Origin: an uncultured Chlorobiota bacterium
Lineage (GTDB): Bacteria > Bacteroidota > Bacteroidia > Bacteroidales > JAADGE01
Reading direction: 5' to 3'
Assembly (NCBI GenBank): GCA_947311265.1
Contig: CAMZKQ010000227.1
Coordinates: 1 to 37,231, forward strand
Length of the DNA stretch: 37,231 nt
Part shown: piece after piece, positions 5,475 to 33,751 of the stretch
How the letters are laid out: each line of letters starts with the position of its first letter
Numbering within the stretch: the stretch's first letter is position 1
Position numbers and translations under genes: made by a program
Notes under the pieces: model-generated
Database searches by the model: none
What the model was told of the DNA's origin: nothing
Seen by the model: the letters and a program-made list of their open reading frames with translations, nothing else

Positions 5475-7232
5475 TTATCTAAATCCGTTGCGTTGCGTAT
5501 TTTTCATTTTATTGATAATGACTTTTGTCTTTTTTCCGTTTTTGTATTGGGCTTCATAGGTAACTTTCCCTTGGCGGTCGTAGAATTTTTCGTGCCCATT
5601 TTTTCGTCCATCTTTGTAGTTGGTTTCTCGCATCACCTGTGTTCCCCGAGGATACCAAAGTACTGATTTCCCGTTTCGTTTTCCATTTTTAAATGTTTCG
5701 AGTCGTTCTTTATGCCCGTTTCGTTTATAAATTATCCATGGGCCGTGTTTCATGCCGTTTTTGTAGAAGCCGGAGTTTTTAAGGTTACCGTCTAGGTAAT
5801 AGTCTTCAAATTTTCCATTTCTAATGCCTTCTTTGTAGCTTTCGAGCCTGTCTTTTGAGCCATTTTTTTTCCAGTAGGTGGCGGTACCGTCCTTAAAATT
5901 CAGCTTGTAGTTTACAATGTACTTTTTCTTCCCATCAGGGAATTTGGCTTCCCATTTTTTGTCCATTTTTCCATGTACAAAGGCACCTTTCATTTCTGGT
6001 TTTCCGTTTTTATAGAAAGACTCCCATGTTCCGTTTTCTTTATCGCCATCGAACACACCTTTATAATATACATTCCCATTTTCAAAGTAAACGGTTTGCA
6101 GGCCTTGTCTAATGCCTTTTACAAAAGGTACTGTTTTCCAAACTTCTCCTGTGGTGTACCAGTAGGTCCATGTGCCTTCCATTAGTCCATTTTTGTACAT
6201 TCCTTCGTTGCCTTTTACGGTTACTTTTTTGCCTTTTATCGAGTCGTTTTGCCAATAGCTCCATTTGCCGTGCATCGTATCATTTTTAAAATGGCCGTCT
6301 ATATCTGGCTTGCCATCTATCTGATACCAGTGTGCAACACCATGTTTTAATCCATTTTTGTAATTTACTTCAATTCTTTTTATTCCTTTGGGGTTATAGA
6401 TTTGGTGTAGCCCATCTTTTTTTCCTAAAATATAATTTCCTTTTTTCTGTACTTTTCCGTTTTCGTACCAGTACGTCCATATACTGTCTTTTTTTCCCGC
6501 AGTATATCGCCCTTCAATTTCTTTTGTTCCATCAGGATACCACGCAATGTGTATGCCATTTTCGTAGTTTAGGATACTTTCTTTTTTTCCGTTTTTATAC
6601 CAGCGTTGCCATTTTTTTATTTTTTGCCCTTTGGCGTAAGTCCCTTCTGAAAAAGGGTTGCCATTCCGGAAGTAGGCTTTAAAAGGGCCCTCTCTAAGTC
6701 CGTTTTTATAACTGCCCGTTTCTTTTATTTTTCCATTATCGAAATATTCGGCATAAGTGCCATTTCCATTTTTAACTAATGCTTTTCCGTCCTCTGCAAA
6801 AAAGCTTATTAATTTGCCTTTATTTTCTTTAAAGGACTCCTCTTTTTTTAATTTTCCTGATGTGTAAAACCTTTTCCAAAGGCTGTCTTTTTTGTTTTTT
6901 TTAAAAAATCCACTAAGCTTTATTTTTCCATTTTCGTACCATTCTACATAATGTCCTGTTTGGTAAGCGTTTCTAAAATAGCCTTCGCTTTGCTTGCCTT
7001 TATTGGGGTAATAAAATGTTGTTCTACCATTAACAAAGCCATGGCTAAATTCGGTTTCTTGTTCCAAAATGCCTTTAGAGTTCCAGTATTTCCATATCCC
7101 ATGCTCCTTACCGTCTTTAAGTAGGCCTTCGCTTTTTTTAGTTCCATTTTTCCATTTGTAGGTTTTTAGCTCTTGGGAGAATGTAAAAATGGAAACCGTA
7201 GAAAGTATTGAAATTATCAATAATTTTTTCAT
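5475..7232 (-). CDS. MORN-variant (YwqK-like) repeat protein, secreted (585 aa)
   Basis: Signal peptide followed by roughly two dozen ~23-aa repeats of the form G.W..(W/Y)Y.NGk.k.eG.y.nG.k.G.W, for example HGIWKYWNSKGILEQETEFSHGFVNG. Confidence 0.9.
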   Translation of the reverse strand: MKKLLIISILSTVSIFTFSQELKTYKWKNGTKKSEGLLKDGKEHGIWKYWNSKGILEQETEFSHGFVNGRTTFYYPNKGKQSEGYFRNAYQTGHYVEWYENGKIKLSGFFKKNKKDSLWKRFYTSGKLKKEESFKENKGKLISFFAEDGKALVKNGNGTYAEYFDNGKIKETGSYKNGLREGPFKAYFRNGNPFSEGTYAKGQKIKKWQRWYKNGKKESILNYENGIHIAWYPDGTKEIEGRYTAGKKDSIWTYWYENGKVQKKGNYILGKKDGLHQIYNPKGIKRIEVNYKNGLKHGVAHWYQIDGKPDIDGHFKNDTMHGKWSYWQNDSIKGKKVTVKGNEGMYKNGLMEGTWTYWYTTGEVWKTVPFVKGIRQGLQTVYFENGNVYYKGVFDGDKENGTWESFYKNGKPEMKGAFVHGKMDKKWEAKFPDGKKKYIVNYKLNFKDGTATYWKKNGSKDRLESYKEGIRNGKFEDYYLDGNLKNSGFYKNGMKHGPWIIYKRNGHKERLETFKNGKRNGKSVLWYPRGTQVMRETNYKDGRKNGHEKFYDRQGKVTYEAQYKNGKKTKVIINKMKNTQRNGFR

Positions 7233-7443
7233 TATGTTCTAGTTTTTATCTTTTTTAACGAAAAAGGTGTGCCGAAAAGTGCATAAGCACTATAAGTCGT
7301 ATTTTGTGCAAATTTAAAGTAAAATTATTCGGAAAATTAAAAAACAAAATAATTTATTTAGCATAAGTAGCGTTTTTTTTAAAGAAAAGGGCAATTTGTT
7401 TTATGAAATTTATTTTTTTTTTAGTTTATCAAAATTTTATATG

Positions 7444-7451
7444 TATCTTTG
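7444..7451 (+). promoter_or_regulatory. -7 box candidate TATCTTTG
   Basis: Matches TAnnTTTG in the 335-bp AT-rich spacer upstream of 7568. Confidence 0.35.
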
Positions 7452-7567
7452 CTTGATATTATGATTTTTTCAAGTTGCCTTATTTAAAATTTGGTACGAC
7501 TTTTGAATAAGTAATAAATAATAACCCAACTAATTTTAAAATTGACCTCAATAATTCTCTATATTTT

Positions 7568-7786: not shown

Positions 7787-8368
7787 ATGCCCAAAACAAC
7801 GACTAGAATAAACTTCAGCTCTTTATGGATTCGTTTTTTGATTTCGAGCTTGGTTCTTTTTATCTCGTTTATCGTCTTTTACTATGTACTCCGAGAAATT
7901 AAATTTATCAACGATTTATATGTTGATGTGTTAAACCACTTTGCAACATTTCTATTAACTAGCTCCCAAACATTTACCGAACTATTTGGTTTTGAAGTAA
8001 CTATATACGGAAAAACCATCAGAATTATAGATGGGCTAAAGGCACATGGTGTATATTTAGACCGTGGTTGTATGGGGCGAAATGTAATGCTTGGCTTTAT
8101 AGGCTTTATTATAGCTTTCCCGGGTAAAATAAAAGACAAATTTTGGTACATACCGTTAGGCCTAATCATTTTAATTTTTGTTAATATCCTCAGGATTTCG
8201 GGTCTAGCAATAGTTGCATACTGTTGCCCAGAATATAGTGATGTAAACCATCATATTATTTTTAAATATACTGCATGGGCGGTAATTTTAATTCTCTGGA
8301 TAATCTGGATAAACAAATTTAGCCCTGTAAAGCTAAAAAAATCAAAAGATAAAATGCCGATAGATTAA
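7787..8368 (+). CDS. Exosortase/archaeosortase-family integral membrane transpeptidase (XrtF-like, 193 aa)
   Basis: Polytopic membrane protein with candidate catalytic residues in the family order: Cys (YLDRGCMGRNVM), Arg (FVNILRISGLAIV) and His (DVNHHIIFKY). The small size and the C-terminus ...LWIIWINKFS resemble Bacteroidota XrtF as I remember it. Confidence 0.65.
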   Translation: MPKTTTRINFSSLWIRFLISSLVLFISFIVFYYVLREIKFINDLYVDVLNHFATFLLTSSQTFTELFGFEVTIYGKTIRIIDGLKAHGVYLDRGCMGRNVMLGFIGFIIAFPGKIKDKFWYIPLGLIILIFVNILRISGLAIVAYCCPEYSDVNHHIIFKYTAWAVILILWIIWINKFSPVKLKKSKDKMPID

Positions 8369-8390
8369 CTCCCCTTTTACTAGATACCTG

Positions 8391-9146
8391 CTATTTAAAA
8401 AATTGCATACTTCCTCTTCCACACGAGGCATTGCCCCAAAAGCCGAAGAAATAATTTATTTCCAAAAGTATTTGGGCTGAAAACGGATTTGTTGTTTCCG
8501 ATAATTGGTAGGCAGGTGCATAAACGCCATCGTTTAAGATCGAAAATGATTTATCTGGGGTAAAATCGCTTAAAGAGTAATTTAACCTTGCCCCCAATTT
8601 CCCAGAAACCCGCTCTGTATGGAAGATTGAAATCCCTGCACCTAGCATTATACTTGTGAACTGGCTAGCATACTGTGCTTGTAACTTTTCAATCGTTAAA
8701 AACTCGGTGGCCTGAATTGAGTTGGTTAGGGTTGCCGATTTTAACATCGAAATTTTAGGCCCTACTTCAAAATATCCGCCATATTCAGAGGTATATCTGA
8801 AAAAGAAGAGAATCTCAGTCGATTTCATATCCATTTTTTTTGTGTAAGAAGCCCCCCCAGCAGCAATATCGTAATTTTGCCCAAATTTAGAATACAGCCC
8901 CTCTGCCCCAAAGCCAATATTATCGCCAACTGTAATGGTGAAGCGGCTACCCAAAAAGTAACTTGGCGTAAAAACATCTAGATTTACATTTTTGTCGGTC
9001 TGGTAATCTTTATTGTATAGAATAGAGTTGCCACCGCCAGCTTTTACCGAAAGGCTAAGCCATTTTATAGTACTGCCTCGTCGGTGCTGGGCAAAAATAT
9101 TGCCCGAGAAAATGAGTAATGCAAGTATTATTATAATTTTTTTCAT
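8391..9146 (-). CDS. Outer-membrane beta-barrel protein (PorT/OprF-like porin family)
   Basis: Signal peptide, alternating hydrophobic beta-strand pattern, and a terminal aromatic residue (...GSMQFFK). Confidence 0.75.
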   Translation of the reverse strand: MKKIIIILALLIFSGNIFAQHRRGSTIKWLSLSVKAGGGNSILYNKDYQTDKNVNLDVFTPSYFLGSRFTITVGDNIGFGAEGLYSKFGQNYDIAAGGASYTKKMDMKSTEILFFFRYTSEYGGYFEVGPKISMLKSATLTNSIQATEFLTIEKLQAQYASQFTSIMLGAGISIFHTERVSGKLGARLNYSLSDFTPDKSFSILNDGVYAPAYQLSETTNPFSAQILLEINYFFGFWGNASCGRGSMQFFK

Positions 9147-9172
9147 GTTTCAGTTTTTAAGTTATTGCTAAT

Positions 9173-9646
9173 TTATTCATTGTGGTAAGGTTCGTTGTTG
9201 ATGATTGTAAATGCCCTATAGAGTTGCTCCATAAAAACAAGCCGGATTAGCTGGTGCGAATAAGTCATTTTAGATAAGGCAATTTTACCTTCTGCTCGGG
9301 CATATACATCGGCAGAAAAGCCAAATGCACCGCCCACTAAAAAACCAAGTTCCTTGGTTGAGCTTATCATTTTATTTTCTATAAATTTTGAAAATTGGAC
9401 TGACGAAAATGCTTTACCTCGCTCATCAAGCAAAAATAATTTGCATTGTTTTGGGATTTTAGCCAAAATCAGTTGCCCTTCTTTCTTTTTATATTCTTGT
9501 GCAGATAGTTTTTTCGTGTTTTTTAAACCCTGAATTATTAGCACCTTAAAGCGGATATATTTAGCAATTCGTTTTTCAAAAATCGCCATGCCTTGTTCGG
9601 CATACGAAAATGCAGTTTTTCCTGTAAGAAACAAAGTTATTGTCAT
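9173..9646 (-). CDS. rlmH: 23S rRNA (pseudouridine1915-N3)-methyltransferase RlmH (SPOUT family)
   Basis: 157 aa. The segment LVGGAFGFSADVYARAEGKIALSKMTYSHQLIRLVFMEQLYRAFTIINNEPYH matches the conserved RlmH C-terminal knot region. Confidence 0.9.
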   Translation of the reverse strand: MTITLFLTGKTAFSYAEQGMAIFEKRIAKYIRFKVLIIQGLKNTKKLSAQEYKKKEGQLILAKIPKQCKLFLLDERGKAFSSVQFSKFIENKMISSTKELGFLVGGAFGFSADVYARAEGKIALSKMTYSHQLIRLVFMEQLYRAFTIINNEPYHNE

Positions 9647-9946
9647 TATAAATATAGTGGGTTAGCCCTAATTATCTACTTTTCTATTGAAACTCAAAGG
9701 TACTGGAAAAAATGAAAAATAAAAAGTATTTTTTTTTCGGTTTACATACTGGAAAAAATAGCTTTAAAAATGTTCGTTATATTTTCCAAAAAATATAAAT
9801 AATATGGAAAAAATAAAGAACTAGCCTTTTTGCAAAAAGTGTCTGCGTTATTACTGGAGCAGTTTTTGTAAACTTAATAGTTGTAATGCCCTGCTAAATT
9901 TACTATTAAAGTAAACAACTAAGCAGAAATATCAAAATTACTAATA

Positions 9947-10348
9947 ATGAGAAACTTAATTATCATATTTACATTTTTATTTTTATCTATTTCCATGCCA
10001 TTAGTTTTTGGCAATTTGGCTATAGTAAAAGTAGAGAGTATTGAATCTGCATTTAAAAATGGCGATTCGAAACAGCTTGCAAGCTATTTTAATGCTAATG
10101 TAAAAATAGAGCTTCCGAGCCGTAGCAAGATATACAGTAGCCAGCAGGCTAAACTTATTCTAGAGCAGTTCTTTGCCAAGAATAAACCAATCGGTTTCAA
10201 AGTTCAAAACGAAAGGCAGTACAAAGGGACGAAAAAGGTAATAGGGCAATTGACTGCCGTTAGTCAGTCTTACCGAGTTGTTTATTCAGTGGATACTGAA
10301 AGGAATATTATAAATAGTATAAAATTAGAAAAACAGACACTTAAATAA
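9947..10348 (+). CDS. Small secreted protein, DUF4783-like
   Basis: Signal peptide, then ...AFKNGDSKQLASYFNANVKIELP...SSQQAKLILEQFF. This resembles the Bacteroidota DUF4783 family from memory. Confidence 0.6.
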   Translation: MRNLIIIFTFLFLSISMPLVFGNLAIVKVESIESAFKNGDSKQLASYFNANVKIELPSRSKIYSSQQAKLILEQFFAKNKPIGFKVQNERQYKGTKKVIGQLTAVSQSYRVVYSVDTERNIINSIKLEKQTLK

Positions 10349-10381
10349 ATTAGAGCAATCCCTTTGCTTAGTTGTCTATTT

Positions 10382-11686
10382 TCAGTGTTTTATATACACG
10401 TCCCTTTGTGGGAAAGGAATACTTATTTGGTTCTCTCTAAATTTTTCATCAATCATAAAACGCAAATCGCTTTGTATGGTGGGTACTTCAAAGTTTTTTC
10501 GGGTCCAGAAAAAGAGCTGAAAATCTAAGGAGGAGTTACCAAAGTTATTAAAGCGAACAAATGGCAGTGGTTTTTTAGAGACCTTAGAATGTGCTAAGGC
10601 ACATTCTAAAAGTGATGCCTTTACAAGCTGAATATCAGAGCCATATGCAACGCCAACATCTACTTTAAAGCGTGTATTTTCATCGTAGTTACTCATGTTT
10701 ATAACTGGCTCGGAAGTAAATTTGGAGTTGGGTATAATCATACGCACATGGTCTCGGGTGAGTATTGTTGTGGTTCTTATGCCCGATTTTACAACTTTCC
10801 CAACGACTCCTCCAACATCTACAACATCACTAACTTTGAGGGTGCGTTCAATCAGCAAGATGAAACCAGATGCAATATCGCTAAAGATTTTCTGAATCCC
10901 AGAACCTAATCCAACTAACAGGGCTGCTGAACCTGCCAATAATATAGATAGTTTAAATCCTGCACCTTCTAGGGTGGTAATAATGGCGAGTATCCAAAGG
11001 ATATATTTTGCCACTTGAAATAGGGCTGCACTTGTGCCTAAATCAAGGTGTTCTTTTTCAATTTGCCGCCGTAAGAATCGCTTAAGCCCCACCAAAACTA
11101 AGGCAGTTATTGCGATTACGGTGAACATATAAAAGAAGTCTGAAATAGTAACATCAACCTTTTTTATACGAAAGATGCTAAACTCTACCACTTTTTGGTA
11201 ATCGGCAAATATGGCACGGAGGGTAATTATAATAAAAATTAGCCAGCCTAGTAATATAAATACTAAAGGGGAGGCTTTTACATGATTGCCTCGCTCTTTG
11301 TTTTTCCCTACAAAAATAATTCTAATGTATTTTTCAAAAATTACTGCTGCGGCAAATGCTGCTCCTATGGTAAAAATATCAAAGGAGGTAATTTCAAACC
11401 CAAAGCCTTTAAAAAATTCAATATTCCAAAAATCAACTACAGAAAGTGAAAAAATAGCTATCCCGATTAACGACCACAAGAAAATTATAATATTGCTGTA
11501 CAGGAAATGTACAAACCCTTTATTTTCTTTGTTCTTTGTTAGTAGCCTGTAAATTATCTTTTTTGCACGCAACTGAAAATAAAATCCAAAAGCAATAGTT
11601 AGTAATAAAAGCCCTAATTCCATAAGGTTTATACTGATGTACTTATTTTCGATAAGGGATAGGTTTAAAAACTGAAAAAAGGTCAT
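10382..11686 (-). CDS. Mechanosensitive ion channel family protein (MscS-like)
   Basis: Multiple N-terminal TM helices, a pore helix and beta domain (GSGIQKIFSDIASGFILLIERTLKVSDVVDVGGVVGKVVKSGIRTTTILTRDHVRMIIPNSKF), and an MscS C-terminal domain. Confidence 0.85.
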   Translation of the reverse strand: MTFFQFLNLSLIENKYISINLMELGLLLLTIAFGFYFQLRAKKIIYRLLTKNKENKGFVHFLYSNIIIFLWSLIGIAIFSLSVVDFWNIEFFKGFGFEITSFDIFTIGAAFAAAVIFEKYIRIIFVGKNKERGNHVKASPLVFILLGWLIFIIITLRAIFADYQKVVEFSIFRIKKVDVTISDFFYMFTVIAITALVLVGLKRFLRRQIEKEHLDLGTSAALFQVAKYILWILAIITTLEGAGFKLSILLAGSAALLVGLGSGIQKIFSDIASGFILLIERTLKVSDVVDVGGVVGKVVKSGIRTTTILTRDHVRMIIPNSKFTSEPVINMSNYDENTRFKVDVGVAYGSDIQLVKASLLECALAHSKVSKKPLPFVRFNNFGNSSLDFQLFFWTRKNFEVPTIQSDLRFMIDEKFRENQISIPFPQRDVYIKH

Positions 11687-13488: not shown

Positions 13489-13821
13489 TTTACTTGCTCA
13501 ATACTATTAGTTAATAAAAATTTACTCTAAGTCTAAATTATTGTTATCACAAAACTAAAATTATTATCCCCTCTTTTTATAAAAAACAAGTTAAATTAAT
13601 GTTAAGGTTTTAAGCTATTTTTCACCCCTAAATTTAGGTCTTCTTTATTCTGTTTTTTTAGCTTAATGATAATCTCTACAGCTACTGTAGAAGATATAAA
13701 AGCAATGTTTTAGCCCTTCAATTTTCTCTGCCAAGTATAGAATAGCTCTATAAAAAGCAGTCTAAAATAAAAATCTATAGAAAGGCTTATAAAATTTGAT
13801 AAAAAAAGCTACATTTGTTAA

Positions 13822-14577
13822 ATGGAAGCATTGAGCAAAAATAAAGTTAAATTTATTAACTCCCTAAAAATAAAAAAATACAGAAGCAAAAACAACGCTT
13901 TTGTTGCCGAAGGGGAAAAAATAATTTTAGATATTATAAAATCAAATGCCCAATTATTAACCCTCCTTTCCTCCGATATTTCTTTTTTAGAATTAGCTAT
14001 ATTTAAAGGTGTAGAAAAATTTAAAATATCCGCACAAGAAATGAGAAAAATAAGTAGCTTAAAAACAGTAACTTCTAGCCTTGCCATTTTTCAAATGCCT
14101 GAAAAAATAGAATTTAGACCCACACAAAATAACTCAGCCACTATTTTTTGCGACGGTATTCAAAACCCCGGAAATTTGGGTACAATTATTCGTACTGCCG
14201 ACTGGTTCGGGATACAAAACATAGTCTGTAGCAATAAATCTGCCGATTTATACAACCCAAAAACCATACAATCTACAATGGGAGCAATTACTCGGGTAAA
14301 CATATCCTACCAAGATAGCAGCACTTTTTTTGAGCATTTGCAACAAGAAAACATAAGCTCCTTTGGAGCTTTTCTCTACGGAGAAACAATCTATGATATA
14401 AAATTCCCAAAATCGGCAGTACTAGTTATTGGCAACGAAGGAAAAGGCATATCAAAAGAAGTGGAGAAATATATTACTAAAAAAATAACAATTCCGAAAT
14501 TTGGAAATAAGGCAGAATCCTTAAACGCAGCCATAGCTGCAGGGATTATAATGTCGGAATACAAACGCCAATTTTAA
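13822..14577 (+). CDS. TrmH/SpoU-family RNA 2'-O-methyltransferase
   Basis: SPOUT motifs are present: NPGNLGTIIRTADWFG, VLVIGNEGKGIS and ESLNAAIAAGIIMSE. Confidence 0.85.
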   Translation: MEALSKNKVKFINSLKIKKYRSKNNAFVAEGEKIILDIIKSNAQLLTLLSSDISFLELAIFKGVEKFKISAQEMRKISSLKTVTSSLAIFQMPEKIEFRPTQNNSATIFCDGIQNPGNLGTIIRTADWFGIQNIVCSNKSADLYNPKTIQSTMGAITRVNISYQDSSTFFEHLQQENISSFGAFLYGETIYDIKFPKSAVLVIGNEGKGISKEVEKYITKKITIPKFGNKAESLNAAIAAGIIMSEYKRQF

Positions 14578-23761: not shown

Positions 23762-23818
23762 AATAAAAAAAATCGTAACACCTTAAATATATAGATATAG
23801 GCAACTCAAAAAAACAAA

Positions 23819-24934
23819 ATGGACGAGCAAATATTCATATTAGACAAGAATAAATCACTAATAGAGCTAAATGAGAAGGAATTTATAAGTGAAAAACAAT
23901 TTCAAGAATTATTAGAAAAATATCCAAAGTTAATACCTGGTAGTCAAATAAATCCTAGAAACCCCAGAAAATGGATTTTAATATCACGAGAATTTGGTGT
24001 CCCTGATGAAGAATACGGTAATAATAAATGGTCATTAGACCACTTATTTATAGACCAAGACGGAATACCAACACTTATTGAAGTAAAAAGAAGCACAGAT
24101 ACAAGAATAAGAAGAGAAGTTGTTGGGCAAATGCTTGATTATGCGGCAAATGCAGTCTCTTATTGGTCAATTAATGAAATTAGAACAAAATATGAAAAGT
24201 ATTGCGATAATAACAATTTAGACCCCGAAATACAAATTCAAGAATTAACAGAAAACAACAATATTGAAAAATTTTGGGAGCTTGTTGATACCAACCTCAA
24301 AGCGGGAAAAATAAGAATGCTTTTTGTTGCCGACAAAATACCAAAAGAATTGCAAAGAATTATTGAGTTCTTAAATGAACAAATGGCACCGGCAGAAGTT
24401 TTGGGAGTTGCATTAAAACAATTTGGAAACGAAACAATTAAAATCCTCGTTCCGCAAGTTGTCGGGCTAACTTCTTCTGCACAAATAAAAAAGGGAGTTA
24501 AAGAATATAACAAATGGACAGAAGAAACTTTTTACAATGAATTAGCTCTAAAAAATGGTAAAATTGAAGTTGCTGTTATAAAAAAAATAATTACACATTT
24601 TGAAAACAAAATTACAAGATTTTGGTTTGGAGAAGGCAAAATACATGGTTCTATAATTCCTGTGCTTGACTTACCAAAAAAATCTTATTATCTTTTTGCG
24701 ATGTGGACTTATGGTAAAATTGAAATATATTTTCAATGGAACAAAAATAAAAAGCCTTTTGATAAAATAGAAAAACGCAAAGAATTATTACAAAAATTAA
24801 ACACAATAGAAAATCTAAATATTCCTGAAAATAAGATAGATAAAAGACCTTCGTTTCCGGTAAAACTATTAGAAAAACAATCCGAGTTTGATAAATTTGT
24901 TCAAGTTTTTGATTGGTTTTTAAATGAAATTTAA
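23819..24934 (+). CDS. PD-(D/E)xK nuclease-fold protein (NucS/DUF91-like core) with an uncharacterised C-terminal domain
   Basis: The segment SLDHLFIDQDGIPTLIEVKRSTDTRIRREVVGQMLDYAANA gives D...(I)E-V-K followed by a Q..DY helix, the classic restriction-endonuclease-like core. The N-terminus has the ...EKQFQELLEKYPKLI pattern seen in such nucleases. The gene is very AT-rich. Confidence 0.6.
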   Translation: MDEQIFILDKNKSLIELNEKEFISEKQFQELLEKYPKLIPGSQINPRNPRKWILISREFGVPDEEYGNNKWSLDHLFIDQDGIPTLIEVKRSTDTRIRREVVGQMLDYAANAVSYWSINEIRTKYEKYCDNNNLDPEIQIQELTENNNIEKFWELVDTNLKAGKIRMLFVADKIPKELQRIIEFLNEQMAPAEVLGVALKQFGNETIKILVPQVVGLTSSAQIKKGVKEYNKWTEETFYNELALKNGKIEVAVIKKIITHFENKITRFWFGEGKIHGSIIPVLDLPKKSYYLFAMWTYGKIEIYFQWNKNKKPFDKIEKRKELLQKLNTIENLNIPENKIDKRPSFPVKLLEKQSEFDKFVQVFDWFLNEI

Positions 24935-24980
24935 AAATAAATTAACTTTGTCAAGTTTTATTTTATTAAAATAAATAATT

Positions 24981-26015
24981 ATGCAAGGACACATAAAAAC
25001 ATTAAGAATACAAAATTTCAAATCAATAAAAAACATACAGATAGATAATTTTAGTCGTATAAACTTATTTATAGGAAAACCTAACGTTGGAAAATCAAAT
25101 TTATTAGAAGCTCTGAGCCTTTTTAGTATTCCATATTACAAACAAAATACAAACAAAAAAATTTCTAATTTTCTTAGGTTAGAAAATGAAGCAGAACTTT
25201 TTTTTGACGGCAATATTGAAAATGAGATTTCAATAAAAACAAATATTGCAAATTGCATAATAAAACATTCTAAAATTTTAGGATTGGATTTAGGAAAAAA
25301 CAGCATTGGTTGGGCAGATTTAAGAAAACTGTTAATTGAAATTCAACATCCCGAAAGTAAAGAAAAAATACAGTTTACACTCGATGATAAATTGAATTTA
25401 AAATCTGATTTAAAAATAAATGCAGAATTTCCTGTTAAAAGATATTTATTTGTCCCTAATGCAAAGAGTAAAAAATCAAACATTCCTTTTCTAATTCCGC
25501 CAACGGGAACTAATTTAATGACTATCATAGAGCAAAATAAAGAGCTCAAAAATGAATTAATAAATATTTTTTCAGAATACGGTTTAAATATTGTTTTTGA
25601 TAAAGCAAGTCAAACATTAAAAATTTTGAAAAAAAACAGAGAAAATGATTTGTTTTTAATACCATACAATTCAATAGCAGATACACTACAACGCATAATA
25701 TTTTACAAAAGTGCAATAGTATCAAATAAAAATTCTGTTCTTTTATTTGAAGAACCCGAAGCTCATTCATTTCCGCCATACATTGTTCACATAACGCAGG
25801 AAATAATACATTCTAAAAGTAATCAGTTCTTTATATCAACTCATAGTCCGTATATAGTTAATGACTTTTTAGAAAATTGCAGAGAAGATTTGTCTATATT
25901 TTCAACAGATTTTAAAAACGGAGAAACCGTTATAAGACAATTAACAAAAGACGAAATATACGAAATATATCAATATGGCGTAGATATATTTGCAAACAAT
26001 GAAAGCTATTTGTAA
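24981..26015 (+). CDS. Compact ABC/OLD-type ATPase (AAA_15/AAA_21-like, 344 aa)
   Basis: The N-terminal beta strand IKTLRIQNFKSIK is followed by Walker A GKPNVGKSNLLEAL, Walker B/D-loop VLLFEEPEAHSFPP and H-loop ISTHSPYIV. Confidence 0.8.
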   Translation: MQGHIKTLRIQNFKSIKNIQIDNFSRINLFIGKPNVGKSNLLEALSLFSIPYYKQNTNKKISNFLRLENEAELFFDGNIENEISIKTNIANCIIKHSKILGLDLGKNSIGWADLRKLLIEIQHPESKEKIQFTLDDKLNLKSDLKINAEFPVKRYLFVPNAKSKKSNIPFLIPPTGTNLMTIIEQNKELKNELINIFSEYGLNIVFDKASQTLKILKKNRENDLFLIPYNSIADTLQRIIFYKSAIVSNKNSVLLFEEPEAHSFPPYIVHITQEIIHSKSNQFFISTHSPYIVNDFLENCREDLSIFSTDFKNGETVIRQLTKDEIYEIYQYGVDIFANNESYL

Positions 26016-26017
26016 TT

Positions 26018-26563
26018 ATGATAGATTTATCAATAATTCCCGAATGCTATATTGACACAAATCTTATAGAAACAATAGTTCCGACAACAAGGGGATACAA
26101 TCATCAAAAAGGAGCAGGGACGGTAACAAGACTTATGCAAAGTAAATTAAGTGATAAGTTTGCAGTAGGAATTGTAGATTGAGATAAAAAACAACTAAAA
26201 TATGTTGAAGAATTTGACATCAAAATTGATATTGGCGATTTGTTATTATTCAAGCATAAAAATCAAAAAAAACACCACTATTTAATTTTTATAAATCCTG
26301 CAATGGAAAAGTGGATTATGAAAAATGCAGATGAAGCAGGAATATCTTTACAAGATTACGGATTACCTGACAACTTGAAAGAACTCGCAAAAATAACAAA
26401 AAAGGTAACAAGCAAAAAAGACAATACTTTCAAAAAACTATTCAGAGAACTAAAAATACGTAATCCAAAAAATGTAGAGATACTATCTAATTGGATAAAA
26501 TATTTAAAAGAAAATCCATACAATGTGGATATTAACGAAATGCAAAAAATGACAGAAATATAA
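26018..26563 (+). pseudogene. Small Toprim-like (E ... DxD) protein, translationally coupled to the ATPase and interrupted by an in-frame TGA at 26180-26182
   Basis: The ATG at 26018 lies 2 nt after the ATPase stop. The same frame continues into ORF 26240-26563. The translation is MIDLSIIPECYIDTNL...KFAVGIVD*DKKQLKYVEEF..., with a Glu at residue 9 and D-stop-D at residues 54-56. The family assignment is tentative. Confidence 0.5.
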
Positions 26564-26688
26564 TGCCTATATCATTGGCTTGGTGTCAGCCATATCCGTT
26601 AAAATTACAGATATATCGTCAATTAAAAAAAAGACCTTTCAGTCTTAATATTTTTTCCAAAAAATTAGTCTGTAAAAATACAATTGTA

Positions 26689-28253: not shown

Positions 28254-28946
28254 ATGAAACCTAAATTATTAATTTTACCGCTACTGTTACTAATTATTTC
28301 TTCTGCAAACGCACAAAAAACCGAAAAATTTATAACAAAAAACTATTTCGGAATAAAAGCTGGAAGTAATTTTTCGCAAATTAATTTGGATATTATTGAA
28401 ACCAACCCAGTAATTAATTCGCAAGAATTTTTTAATGGAATTTCAGGGGGGCTAGTTTACAAAAACATGGAAGAACAATGGTTTGCCCTACAAATAGAGT
28501 TACTCTATTCTCAAAAATCAGGACAAAACTATTTCGACAAATCTAGCTTACCAGACACTTTAAATATGCCGGCATATATCCCTTATAATCTTACACTTAA
28601 CCAAATTGAAATACCTGTACTTGCCAACCTTAATTTCGGAAAAGGAAACAACAAACTCAACTTCATACTCGGGCCTTATTTTGCATACACGCTCGGGAAA
28701 AAGATAAGCTTTACCAAAGGCACACAGCTTGAAAAAGGGCATTATCCTGCAACTGACCGCAACTACGAACTGGGCGTAAATATAGGCATCGGCTATGGCA
28801 GAATTATCAGCAACGGAATGCTCGAAGCCGAATTTAGATTTACACAAGCATACACAAATATCTACAACACAAAATCAGTAAACAAATCATTAATTTATCA
28901 AACACAAGCACTCACATTTTCAGTAAGTTACTTGTATAATTTATAG
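28254..28946 (+). CDS. Outer-membrane beta-barrel protein (PorT-like family), inserted between sufB and sufC
   Basis: Signal peptide, the motif YFGIKAGSNFSQI, an alternating strand pattern, and a C-terminal ...LTFSVSYLYNL. Confidence 0.75.
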   Translation: MKPKLLILPLLLLIISSANAQKTEKFITKNYFGIKAGSNFSQINLDIIETNPVINSQEFFNGISGGLVYKNMEEQWFALQIELLYSQKSGQNYFDKSSLPDTLNMPAYIPYNLTLNQIEIPVLANLNFGKGNNKLNFILGPYFAYTLGKKISFTKGTQLEKGHYPATDRNYELGVNIGIGYGRIISNGMLEAEFRFTQAYTNIYNTKSVNKSLIYQTQALTFSVSYLYNL

Positions 28947-32370: not shown

Positions 32371-32978
32371 AAGCCCTAAGGGCTACCCTACCTTACAGTT
32401 AATGAAAAAGTTATAAAACTAAAGTTTCGGAGTGCTTAGCTCCTTAATATATACTGTATTTATTTTTAATTTGACTTTATCTTATTGATTTATTGTATTT
32501 ATTTACAGGTAGTTACAAAAAGAATTCTTATTTTACGGCTTTTAAAGCAATTAACATTTTTATTATTTTATGTTCTGTTTTTTCTTGGTTAATAATTTTG
32601 CTTATAAAATTGTTAATATCTAAATCTCTTTGTCCAACCTTTTTACGGAAGCATATATCTCTAAAATGGACTTTTAAAATCATAAAAAACACCTTTACCC
32701 AATTTTGTAATTTCCTTAAAATTAGATATAAAAAAAAGAATTAAAAAAGTATCGTCTGATTTTACTCCTTTACTTTTTATTTCAGAAAATTTATTTGACA
32801 GAGCTTTGATTTTAAATCAATCAAAAGCATCAACCAATTTGTCTGAAAATTTTGTTTTAACTACTTCAAAAATAGTAATTTACATTTAATTATGCAACTT
32901 TTCCACACCCCTATCCTACTGATTACTAACCAATTAACACTTCTTAGCTTTTCTTGTAATAGCCTTATTATTAATACA

Positions 32979-33751
32979 TTAACAAGTCCGAAACTTTAGT
33001 TCTTTATTAAAAATCCCAAAAACGGCCGACCCGCTGCCCGACATTGAGGCATAAATTGCTCCATCGGTGTACATTTGTGCTTTTAGTGCTGCTATTTCTG
33101 GGTGTTTTTTTAATACCGTTTTTTCAAAATCATTTTTGATATTATTTTTCCATTGCTCTACTGGTAATTTTATTAACTCTTTAAGTGAGGTTTGGGGCAG
33201 GTTTGGGGATATGCCTGAAAAGGCATCGGGGGTGCTAACAAAAATATTGGGTTGTATTGTTCTAATTTCGTATGGGCTTAAATCTAAGCTAATTGCTGAA
33301 AAAATATTGCCTGTTCCTTGGGCAAAAGTGGCTTTGTTTTGTATAAAAAAAGGGCAATCGCTGCCTAATTTTAGTGCGTAACTTTCTAATTTTTTATCCG
33401 TAATATTGAGCGAAAATAGTTGATTTACAGCTTTTAGCATAAATGCAGCGTCTGCCGACCCACCACCCAATCCTGCCCCTGCCGGAATGTTTTTTTGAAG
33501 TGTTATGCTTAAATTGGGTAATTTAAAGGCTTTTTGCAAAAGCCTAAATGCTTTAACAACTAGTTGTTTTCTGGGTCAATTTTTAAATCCATGCCATATT
33601 GCTCAAATTTAAAACCCTTGCTTTCTGTAATTTCTAGCTTATCTTTTAAAGCTATTGGGTAAAAAATGGTTTCTAAATCGTGAAAGCCATCGGCTCTTTT
33701 TCGGATTATATTTAATCCGATATTGATTTTTGCATTGGGATAAACGACCAT
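32979..33751 (-). pseudogene. ispE: 4-(cytidine 5'-diphospho)-2-C-methyl-D-erythritol kinase (IspE) with a 1-nt frameshift near 33560-33566
   Basis: The N-terminal ORF (33560-33751, MVVYPNAKINIGLNI...KIDPENN*) stops. The conserved continuation LVVKAFRLLQKAFKLPNLSITLQKNIPAGAGLGGGSADAAF (GHMP kinase motif) is in another frame and overlaps the stop. Restoring one base in ...gaaaacaa|cta... gives ENNLVVKA. Confidence 0.85.

Follow-up and report, generated by a model that had tools for sequence, protein, structure and literature searches.

An AT-rich islet in an uncultured Chlorobiota bacterium carries a widespread ABC ATPase-plus-partner gene pair, a candidate anti-phage module, beside a separate NucS-like nuclease gene

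Prokaryotic immunity relies heavily on pairs of an ABC ATPase and an effector (OLD, Gabija, PARIS, AbiL, Septu, Menshen), and the mapping of their effectors is still under way. PARIS is a two-gene module in which the gene of an AAA_15/21 ABC ATPase, AriA (~480 aa), is followed by that of a smaller effector, AriB (~300 aa); AbiL is a bicistronic system of an ATPase, AbiLi, and a small partner, AbiLii; and HEC-01 combines an ABC ATPase with a Toprim partner. The metal ligands of AriB are E26, D30, D88, E90 and E122 (PMC11464382), and AbiLii aligns structurally with the OLD Toprim 6NJV (PMC13064643).

Here we describe a locus with a pair of this general layout. It lies in the window, i.e. the whole stretch of 37,231 nucleotides that was analysed (contig CAMZKQ010000227.1), where a first-pass annotation, made from the letters and their open reading frames, had singled out three genes, here named A, B and C, as a candidate defence module of a PD-(D/E)xK nuclease, a small ABC ATPase and a Toprim-like protein. 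Genes B and C share with PARIS and AbiL the order of an ATPase gene and then a smaller gene. Among PADLOC models, AbiLi is the best match of B (PDLC02336; E 3.5e-23; residues 5-322 of B against positions 2-325 of 340), followed by PDC-M38A over its full length (E 4.6e-22), AriA (E 1.4e-16) and HEC-01A (E 2e-14), with GajA also among the best matches. In Pfam, B passes the cut-offs of both AAA_15 (54.6 bits; cut-off 32.1) and AAA_21 (43.4 bits; cut-off 27), and its Walker A, Walker B and H-loop motifs, which the first-pass annotation had read, are intact. As judged from its sequence, B thus belongs with the defence-associated ABC ATPases of the AAA_15/21 type. It is nevertheless shorter than AriA, at 344 aa, and from length only the coiled-coil insertions of AriA are probably missing from it; C, at 181 aa, is likewise shorter than AriB. 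The two proteins are of ~40 kDa and ~21 kDa, respectively.

The likeness to described systems is one of the ATPase and does not extend to a recognisable partner. B is an ATPase of the type found in PARIS (OLD class 4), whereas C lacks a profile-recognisable DUF4435 or OLD-type Toprim: across 118 members of its family, no Pfam or PADLOC match was obtained to Toprim, DUF4435, DUF4276, RloB, AriB or AbiLii, and membership of C in the Toprim, DUF4435, DUF4276 or RloB families was rejected as far as HMMs go. AbiL and RloAB are therefore matched through B only. Unlike AbiLii, the model of C does not align with 6NJV, nor with any PARIS or OLD entry, among the top 50 PDB matches listed. The M38A model of PDC-M38 matches B and no M38B model matches C, while a weak match to HEC-01B (E 0.0085) was seen in 1 of the 118 family members only; PADLOC would therefore not call the B-C pair. 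The first-pass annotation had recognised no named system in the trio, and the PADLOC and Pfam searches bear this out.

A foreign islet between housekeeping genes

The three co-directional genes, with spacers of 46 and 2 nt, were recovered from the open reading frames exactly where they had first been placed (Table 1). They form an islet of ~2.8 kb that sits between housekeeping genes, flanked, again as first reported, by the gene of a cytidine-deaminase-fold protein and by that of SufB (883 bits), in an ApbC/NifU/SufBC neighbourhood. The islet has a GC content of 0.27, where the window as a whole averages 0.358. With values of 0.291, 0.258 and 0.280, genes A, B and C rank as the three lowest of the 32 ORFs in the window, and when windows of islet length were slid along the stretch, 6 of 690 were equally low, with the minimum inside the islet. 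The composition unlike that of the neighbours had originally been argued from hand counts, which proved exact: GC is 0.22 over the first 100 nt of gene B and 0.34 over those of sufB, the remainder of which is at 0.43.

The edges of the islet are approximate and follow from nucleotide homology to related loci. On the left, homology to locus L010 starts at ~23796, 23 nt 5' of gene A; on the right, homology to L183 (96% identity), L005 and L015 stops at ~26589-26597, that to L183 ending just past a small hairpin at the right edge of the shared unit. The same A-B-C unit is found in other genomes at 78-96% nucleotide identity with different flanking genes. Because its genes are the three lowest-GC ORFs and because the same unit lies between other flanks elsewhere, the islet is foreign by composition and horizontally acquired. 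As the first-pass annotation had noted, no integrase was found at the islet and no meaningful direct or inverted repeats flank it; a search of the region for tRNA genes, terminators and Rfam families also gave nothing meaningful. For an empty-site comparison, the best metagenome relatives of the flanking deaminase were 64-69% identical and not syntenic with sufB, and an exact-match look-up returned none.

Table 1 Features of the islet, in positions of the window
Feature	Position	Strand	Description and basis
AT-rich islet with genes A, B and C	23796..26594	+	Nucleotide homology limits and GC; edges approximate
Gene A	23819..24934	+	371 aa; stand-alone PDC-S11-like candidate defence gene
Putative catalytic core of A, D74 ... 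E88-V-K90 (D-x13-E-x-K)	24038..24088	+	Conservation and direct reading
Gene B	24981..26015	+	344 aa; minimal ABC-type ATPase (AAA_15/AAA_21); putative sensor/regulator of the pair
Walker A of B, G32KPNVGKS39	25074..25097	+	Sequence reading
Walker B region of B, V253LLFEEP259	25737..25757	+	Sequence reading
H-loop of B, S286THS289	25836..25847	+	Sequence reading
B-C junction: TAA stop, 2 nt, ATG	26013..26020	+	ORF reading
Gene C	26018..26563	+	181 codons; putative metal-dependent nuclease effector; interrupted by a stop codon
E9-C-Y-I-D13 of C, acidic pair right after strand 1	26042..26056	+	Alignment and AF2 model
D54-TGA-D56 of C, premature stop in the middle of D-x-D	26177..26185	+	TGA at 26180-26182, in frame, codon 55
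Small hairpin TGGCT-TGGTGTC-AGCCA	26576..26592	+	Right edge of the shared unit

Gene A and its relation to the B-C pair

Gene A consists of an N-terminal NucS/EndoMS-like PD-(D/E)xK nuclease of ~216 residues and a separate C-terminal domain (residues 233-371; ~140 aa), which is well predicted and has no match. With the AF2 model (pLDDT 84), Foldseek against the PDB returned NucS (2vld; probability 1.0), EndoMS (5gke_A; 0.98) and SduA (8ps5; 0.5); the predicted two-lobed N-terminal fold resembles that of NucS and appears to contain a RecB-like PD-(D/E)xK core. D74 is followed after 13 residues by E88-V-K90 and then by Q104..D107-Y108, and D74, E88, K90, Q104 and Y108 are invariant among the 63 homologues aligned. 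The restriction-endonuclease-like core of the first-pass annotation thus stands, with its E-V-K and Q..DY elements and now a NucS/EndoMS fold, except that the spacing is x13 and not x12.

Both the two-lobed fold and the D-x13-E-x-K spacing are shared with NucS/EndoMS. NucS is however a mismatch-repair enzyme and not a defence gene, whereas homologues of gene A are found in islands and next to toxin-antitoxin neighbours: beside AbiE and HEPN/MNT genes, beside an integrase, or inside a type I R-M/Kiwa/Abi_2 island. Like members of the NucS/Shedu/PDC-S11 group, A occurs alone and sometimes inside defence islands. It differs from NucS/EndoMS and Shedu (SduA) in that no Pfam or NCBIfam match was found, including to NucS/DUF91 and DUF4263, and from these and PDC-S11 in its extra 140-aa C-terminal domain. 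Nor is the gene wholly unrecognised, since two HMMs of the PADLOC candidate PDC-S11 match it (E 2.8e-15 and 1.1e-12), over the N-terminal two thirds only (residues 12-240 against profile positions 12-212 of 358). The family is very large and sporadically distributed, with more than 7000 homologues of ~375 aa that carry no Pfam domain, and its sequence match to PDC-S11 is a distant one.

Does A belong to one system with B and C? The first-pass annotation had joined the three families in a single module, in which the PD-(D/E)xK nuclease would work with the ATPase/Toprim-like pair. The genes are co-directional, the AT-rich A-B spacer is without predicted terminator, and A adjoins B-C throughout the closest clade, at nucleotide identities of at least 78% (the window, L010, L015 and L183, with remnants in L005-7); as the genomic surroundings differ from locus to locus, A, B and C moved together, and they may have some functional link. 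Outside this clade the association breaks down. Only one of 80 genomes has A within 10 kb of the pair, on which ground a single conserved A+B+C system was rejected; A is absent at L001, L002-4 and L008; and its more than 7000 homologues occur without B and C, as in each of the four contexts examined. Even within the clade, A decays independently: L010 has lost ~60 aa, L005-7 keep ~15 plus 26 aa, and in L015 the gene is split by an insertion, while B and C remain intact in these loci with dN/dS of ~0.1. We therefore regard a three-component defence system as very unlikely. The three genes are juxtaposed locally, and A is a separate NucS-like nuclease gene, with a nuclease fold, independent of B-C.

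An obligate pair and its interrupted copy

B and C, by contrast with A, are inseparable. In all 80 genome loci B stands directly 5' of C, as it does in loci L001-L010; 78 of the 80 genomes have junctions between -23 and +5 nt, with modes at -1 and -4. In the window the stop codon of B and the start codon of C are 2 nt apart, which indicates translational coupling; B-C is thus an obligate, translationally coupled pair, as the short spacer had first suggested. Purifying selection acts on both genes alike (dN/dS 0.05-0.15), with values of 0.07-0.13 for B against close relatives. Most occurrences of the pair are in Bacteroidota, gut Bacteroides, Parabacteroides and Phocaeicola among them, and others are in Methylococcales. 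It is mostly chromosomal. An archaeal pleolipovirus that carries the pairing was the sole mobile-element match, and relatives of C were found neither in IMG/VR viral contigs nor in plasmids.

As a check, the first-pass annotation had proposed to see whether the three families sit in defence islands in other genomes. For B-C no clear enrichment of this kind was seen: the genes immediately next to the pair in 46 genomes have mostly housekeeping roles (purC, phoH, sigma factors, RNR, glyS), and few belong to defence. Such surroundings raise the possibility that B-C serves chiefly as a selfish addiction cassette of the toxin-antitoxin type, with C as toxin, B as antitoxin or regulator, no dedicated anti-phage benefit, and A as an unrelated neighbour. 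A typically solitary, tightly coupled pair that lies between housekeeping genes without mobility genes is what such a cassette would look like, the gene broken in the present copy is that of the putative toxic partner, and PARIS itself acts as a type II toxin-antitoxin system (PMC13064643). The ATPase family of B is however repeatedly tied to phage sensing, B and C have been under strong purifying selection across long divergence, and toxin-antitoxin and abortive-infection roles are mutually compatible. We judge an addiction cassette alone to be unlikely, and prefer to read B-C as a candidate anti-phage pair.

The copy of C in the window is interrupted by an in-frame TGA at codon 55, between the two aspartates of its D-x-D motif. 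In the nearest relative, L183, this codon is AGA (Arg); in L015, L005, L010, L008 and L001 it is AAA (Lys), homologues carry K or R, and C is intact in 78 of 80 genome loci. A single A-to-T change (AGA to TGA) thus truncates C here, in a copy that is either freshly broken or mis-sequenced. Recoding of TGA (code 4, code 25 or selenocysteine) was rejected, given that all other long ORFs read through in table 11, that homologues have Lys/Arg at this position and that the nearest relative has AGA. Since C is truncated inside D-x-D, the module is probably inactive here unless the stop is a sequencing error, and because its effector gene carries the premature stop this copy adds little in itself.

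The small partner C and the function of the pair

C belongs to a large family of ~180-aa proteins: its close homologues number at least 258, and clustering at 50% identity gives 1296 representatives. Among 101 diverse representatives (29-50% identity), E9, D54 and D56 are the sole invariant residues, and C10, D13, T14, H29, H80 and K128 are at least 90% conserved. In the AF2 model (pLDDT 93.9), E9 comes right after the strand formed by residues 6-8 and D54-x-D56 after the next strand (49-54), with two helices and no strand between them, whereas a canonical Toprim runs β1-α-β2-α-β3. The acidic residues E9, D13, D54, D56 and E97 parallel the metal ligands of AriB in order and spacing. The first-pass annotation had read a Toprim signature in C from a glutamate and a D-x-D about 45 residues later; the invariant residues and the distance of 45 hold, while neither the HMMs, over the 118 members, nor Foldseek, against PDB and BFVD, confirmed a Toprim fold. 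Thus, the Toprim-like arrangement is supported at the level of motifs.

Other routes to a fold gave the same picture. Among the top 50 Foldseek matches listed for PDB and BFVD there was no Toprim or other nuclease, the best E-values being 0.35 and 0.18, respectively. PDB sequence-profile searches with alignments A2 and A6 returned spurious helical matches only. Comparison of C profiles by hhalign with P2 Old (probability 0.2%), the "OLD family nuclease" of phage 62-2, ORF333 of P2-EC5 and the 392-aa partner of L015 gave nothing significant; for the 62-2 family profile, another ATPase-partner family, a weak local match placed the G-loop and D-x-D in register (P 0.006, probability 6%). A hunt for DUF4435/DUF4276 seeds by plasmid and phage tblastn found partners likewise without a Pfam family.

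C could accordingly be something other than a nuclease, either a non-catalytic adaptor or regulator or another enzyme, such as a phosphatase or a nucleotidyl-transferase acting on a small molecule, with its E ... DxD arising by convergence. The absence of a Toprim or nuclease match for a model of pLDDT 94 (top 50 listed), the 0 of 118 members matching Toprim, DUF4435, DUF4276 or RloB HMMs and the missing strand between E9 and D-x-D all fit this, and the near-invariant C10, H29 and H80 could mean a different chemistry. But the invariant acidic residues are placed at strand ends in the ligand order and spacing of AriB, and the partners of B's ATPase class are overwhelmingly nucleases. A C that is no nuclease therefore seems to us quite unlikely. 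It looks like a metal-dependent enzyme, and E9, D13, D54-x-D56 and E97 are the probable ligands of its metal ions in the cleavage of nucleic acids.

Taken together, we think that the islet probably comprises two independent modules, the stand-alone nuclease gene A and the ATPase-plus-partner pair B-C, each a candidate for anti-phage defence. By analogy, the most likely function of B-C would be that of a PARIS/AbiL-like sensor ATPase with a nuclease effector. As in PARIS, AbiL and HEC-type systems, B may keep C inactive and sense a phage-derived trigger; C, released or activated in an ATP-dependent manner, would then cut RNA or DNA, and the infection would be aborted. A point against a defence reading is that the analogous HEC-01 did not protect in its assay, and the PDC entries matched by A and B are candidates. 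More tentatively, B-C could represent a previously undescribed and widespread defence or abortive-infection family in which a minimal 344-aa ABC ATPase controls a new nuclease architecture, C being either a strongly reduced Toprim, without its edge strand, or a separate fold in which an E/DxD metal site arose by convergence; we consider this possible rather than probable.

B-C is therefore a widespread pair without a name, of a kind, an ATPase with an effector, that is already known. Since the C family is absent from Pfam, from PADLOC v2 and from structure searches, current annotation misses a two-gene module that is common in Bacteroidota, and owing to its small size the pair would lend itself well to use as a minimal model of the gating of an effector by an ABC ATPase.

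Layout and boundaries of the A-B-C islet

The three genes are flanked by genes for a cytidine-deaminase-fold protein and SufB, in an ApbC/NifU/SufB/SufC iron-sulfur neighbourhood, and we recovered their ORFs and spacers (46 nt between A and B, 2 nt between B and C) exactly as first annotated. Their GC contents (0.291 for A, 0.258 for B and 0.280 for C, against a window average of 0.358) are the lowest three among the 32 main ORFs of the window, and the values counted by hand in the first-pass annotation over the initial 100 nt (0.22 for B, 0.34 for sufB) proved exact on computation. Further short patches of low GC (0.24-0.28) occur elsewhere in the window. Between sufB and sufC lies an ORF whose N-terminus looks like a signal peptide and whose Tyr/Asn-rich composition resembles that of a beta-barrel protein; it has no NCBIfam match. 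A tRNA gene, an integrase, a significant flanking repeat and an Rfam family were looked for around A-B-C and none was found, in line with the earlier remark that no integrase or flanking repeat is visible.

A block containing all three genes is common to the closest clade (78-96% nucleotide identity), with flanks that vary among its genomes. Thus, A, B and C recently moved together, and the trio is a recent joint islet, not a conserved system. Homology with the nearest relative (L183, 96% nucleotide identity) stops directly after a hairpin located 13 nt past the C stop; the mobile unit therefore has its right boundary at this hairpin.

Coordinates of features in the window and in comparison loci
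Feature	Position	Strand	Description
Gene A	window 23819-24934	+	371-aa ORF
Gene B	window 24981-26015	+	344-aa ORF
Gene C	window 26018-26563	+	181 codons, in-frame TGA at 26180-26182
Shared A-B-C block	window ~23796 to ~26594		common to closest clade
Hairpin	window 26576-26597		TGGCT-TGGTGTC-AGCCA
Low-GC patches	window ~2001-2500, 7001-7500, 9501-10000, 13501-14000, 32501-33000		
sufB-sufC ORF	window 28254-28946		230 aa
Insertion in gene A	L015:228-3143 (window A ~24761-24789)		2.9 kb
Upstream of A remnant	L005:1-2000		2 kb, repeat at 557-694 and 1194-1382
Viral B-C pair	L095:2997-4495		Geoglobus ahangari pleomorphic virus 1, BK065157
ATPase partner	L098:4594-5625		Pseudomonas filamentous phage 62-2
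B-C between phoH and purC	L024, L027, L040, L041, L051, L077, L094 (~8000-11500 each)		same site

B and C as the unit, A as a neighbour

A C-profile scan restricted to one genome per species yielded 80 loci, whose neighbours were checked by tblastn. A B homologue lies directly upstream of C in all 80, and 78 of them have a spacing of -23 to +5 nt from B stop to C start (modes -1 and -4), bearing out the coupling first proposed. A homologue of A is found within 10 kb of C in a single locus, L015, the closest relative; metagenome contigs from Melioribacteraceae (L001) and Bacteroides (L002-4), as well as L008-9, carry B-C without A. B and C are thus the real, co-inherited unit, and A is outside it. 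The proposal that all three genes form one system does not survive these counts, nor does the expected co-occurrence of the three families in other genomes: A adjoins B-C only in the closest clade and decays there, ~60 internal residues being gone in L010, ~15 N-terminal and 26 C-terminal residues being left in L005-7, and a 2.9-kb insertion breaking the gene in L015. B and C are intact in these loci and under purifying selection (dN/dS ~0.1).

Within the L015 insertion lie a further AAA_15/21 ATPase (509 aa), which matches NsnB, PDC-M55A and AriA in PADLOC, a defence-system profile library, and a 392-aa partner without family. The gene A fragments overlap by ~29 nt, possibly a target duplication, and the insertion would be a defence-type cassette nested in another such cassette. 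In L005, the 2 kb upstream of the A remnant holds no long ORF; its repeat encodes near-identical 45-aa and 62-aa peptides.

The gene A family itself is large (>7000 matches). Four contexts lacking B-C were examined: next to a DUF6088/AbiEii pair and a HEPN/MNT pair, next to a tyrosine integrase, solitary among housekeeping genes, and within a type I R-M/Kiwa/HNH/Abi_2 island. No match was obtained in Pfam or NCBIfam. The N-terminal two thirds match PDC-S11 (E 2.8e-15), one of 145 untested candidates issued alongside PADLOC (bioRxiv 10.1101/2024.01.29.577857). Foldseek searches with the AF2 model (pLDDT 84) returned EndoMS/NucS first (5gke_A, probability 0.98; 2vld, probability 1.0), then SduA, SfsA and Card1. 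The invariant residues are D74-x13-E88-x-K90, Q104 and Y108, so the nuclease core recognised earlier stands in its EVK, its Q..Y helix and now its NucS-like fold, with a spacing of 13 residues rather than 12. The most fitting reading of A is that of a single-gene nuclease candidate in its own right, which happens to adjoin B-C in this clade.

The ATPase and its small partner

B belongs to the ATPase class assigned at first: it passes the Pfam thresholds for both AAA_15 and AAA_21, and its Walker A (GKPNVGKS), Walker B (VLLFEEP) and H-loop (STHS) are intact. Its top PADLOC matches, both full length, are AbiLi (3.5e-23) and PDC-M38A (4.6e-22), followed by AriA, GajA, HEC-01A, Old and NsnB; against the PDB, only weak matches to ABC/SMC heads were obtained.

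C homologues are stand-alone proteins of 175-195 aa, with at least 258 close members in a word-indexed search and 1296 cluster representatives at 50% identity in a full HMM scan. C is modelled with confidence (pLDDT 93.9, pTM 0.90) as an alpha/beta domain at the N-terminus and a helical one at the C-terminus. Across 101 representatives (29-50% identity), only an acidic triad, E9, D54 and D56, is invariant, and conservation reaches at least 90% at C10, D13, T14, H29, H80 and K128. E9 lies immediately past strand 1 and the D-x-D immediately past the following strand. In order and spacing, E-x3-D ... D-x-D ... E97 resembles the metal ligands of the AriB Toprim of PARIS (E26, D30, D88, E90 and E122; PMC11464382). 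Unlike in a canonical Toprim, the segment between E9 and D-x-D consists of two helices and no strand.

Family members contain no Pfam domain, and Toprim, DUF4435, DUF4276, RloB, AriB and AbiLii profiles matched none of 118 of them; Foldseek against the PDB and BFVD gave no match among those listed, and hhalign of the C profile with P2 Old found nothing. Since no statistical test bore out Toprim membership, "Toprim-like", as C was first described, is a motif-level lead rather than a demonstrated fold: the Glu and the D-x-D stand, and the fold and profile searches gave no match.

A parallel motif set occurs in another partner family. The phage 62-2 protein, partner of an AriA/NsnB-like ATPase and annotated "putative OLD family nuclease", has no Pfam match and 18 homologues only. 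It has in common with the 392-aa L015 protein an invariant E-x3-D ... GGG ... D-x-D ... E-x-E-N (alignment A8), which points to another unannotated effector family of this ATPase class. Aligned with C by hhalign, this family is in register but weakly so (P 0.006, probability 6%).

The C copy in the window is broken. Its TGA replaces the conserved Lys/Arg of the motif GI(I/V)D-[KR]-DKK, so that both Asp of the D-x-D seen at first are present and the residue between them is the stop codon. This position reads AGA in L183 and AAA in five other relatives, no frameshift was found, and dN/dS is 0.06-0.09, including the region 3' of the stop. Either the lesion is therefore very recent or the sequence is in error here. 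A sense reading of TGA was excluded: the other long ORFs are all open under table 11, and homologues carry neither Trp nor Gly at the site. Among 31 main ORFs of the window, TAA ends 24, TAG 6 and TGA 1.

Distribution and possible role of B-C

Most hosts belong to the Bacteroidota (Chitinophagaceae, Sphingobacteriaceae, Prolixibacteraceae, Cytophagales, Bacteroides, Parabacteroides, Phocaeicola, Dysgonomonas and Butyricimonas), with several Methylococcales and one Desulfobacterales MAG outside. Neighbours in 46 genomes are mainly housekeeping genes (purC in 8, phoH in 4, sigma factors, RNR, glyS, adenylosuccinate lyase); the defence genes beside B-C are one type III REase, one BrxH and one AbiEi. 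B-C behaves, in the window too, as a solitary cassette inserted between core genes and not as a typical member of large defence islands. Seven loci from Prolixibacteraceae, Mariniphaga and Sunxiuqinia genomes have it between phoH and purC, so the pair may have been inherited vertically there, or this lineage may offer a favoured insertion site.

The sole viral or plasmid match is a provirus-type archaeal pleolipovirus, Geoglobus ahangari PV1, in which gp15 is the B homologue and gp16 the C homologue, the pair being flanked by two wHTH regulators. There, gp15 (330 aa) overlaps gp16, which is 31% identical to C across 92% of the length of C, the tblastn match running beyond the annotated gp16 stop; a RelE/ParE toxin gene is nearby.

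In the best-supported reading, B-C belongs with two-component modules such as PARIS, AbiL and HEC-01, by analogy with which we infer a defence role, a sequestration mechanism and nuclease chemistry. B, as a minimal ABC ATPase, would be the trigger sensor and would govern C, a putative small metal-dependent effector, whose release or activation would damage nucleic acid and abort infection. That B-C is a selfish TA-like module is a live alternative, compatible with defence.

Pairing an ABC ATPase with a small effector is a familiar scheme, and existing catalogues already list many variants that are untested. The novelty lies in C, a large effector family for which the searched libraries offer neither a family assignment nor a structural match, and in a pair that would escape a PADLOC v2 call. 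The B-C family, so far uncharacterised, is both common and compact, which sets it above ordinary annotation.
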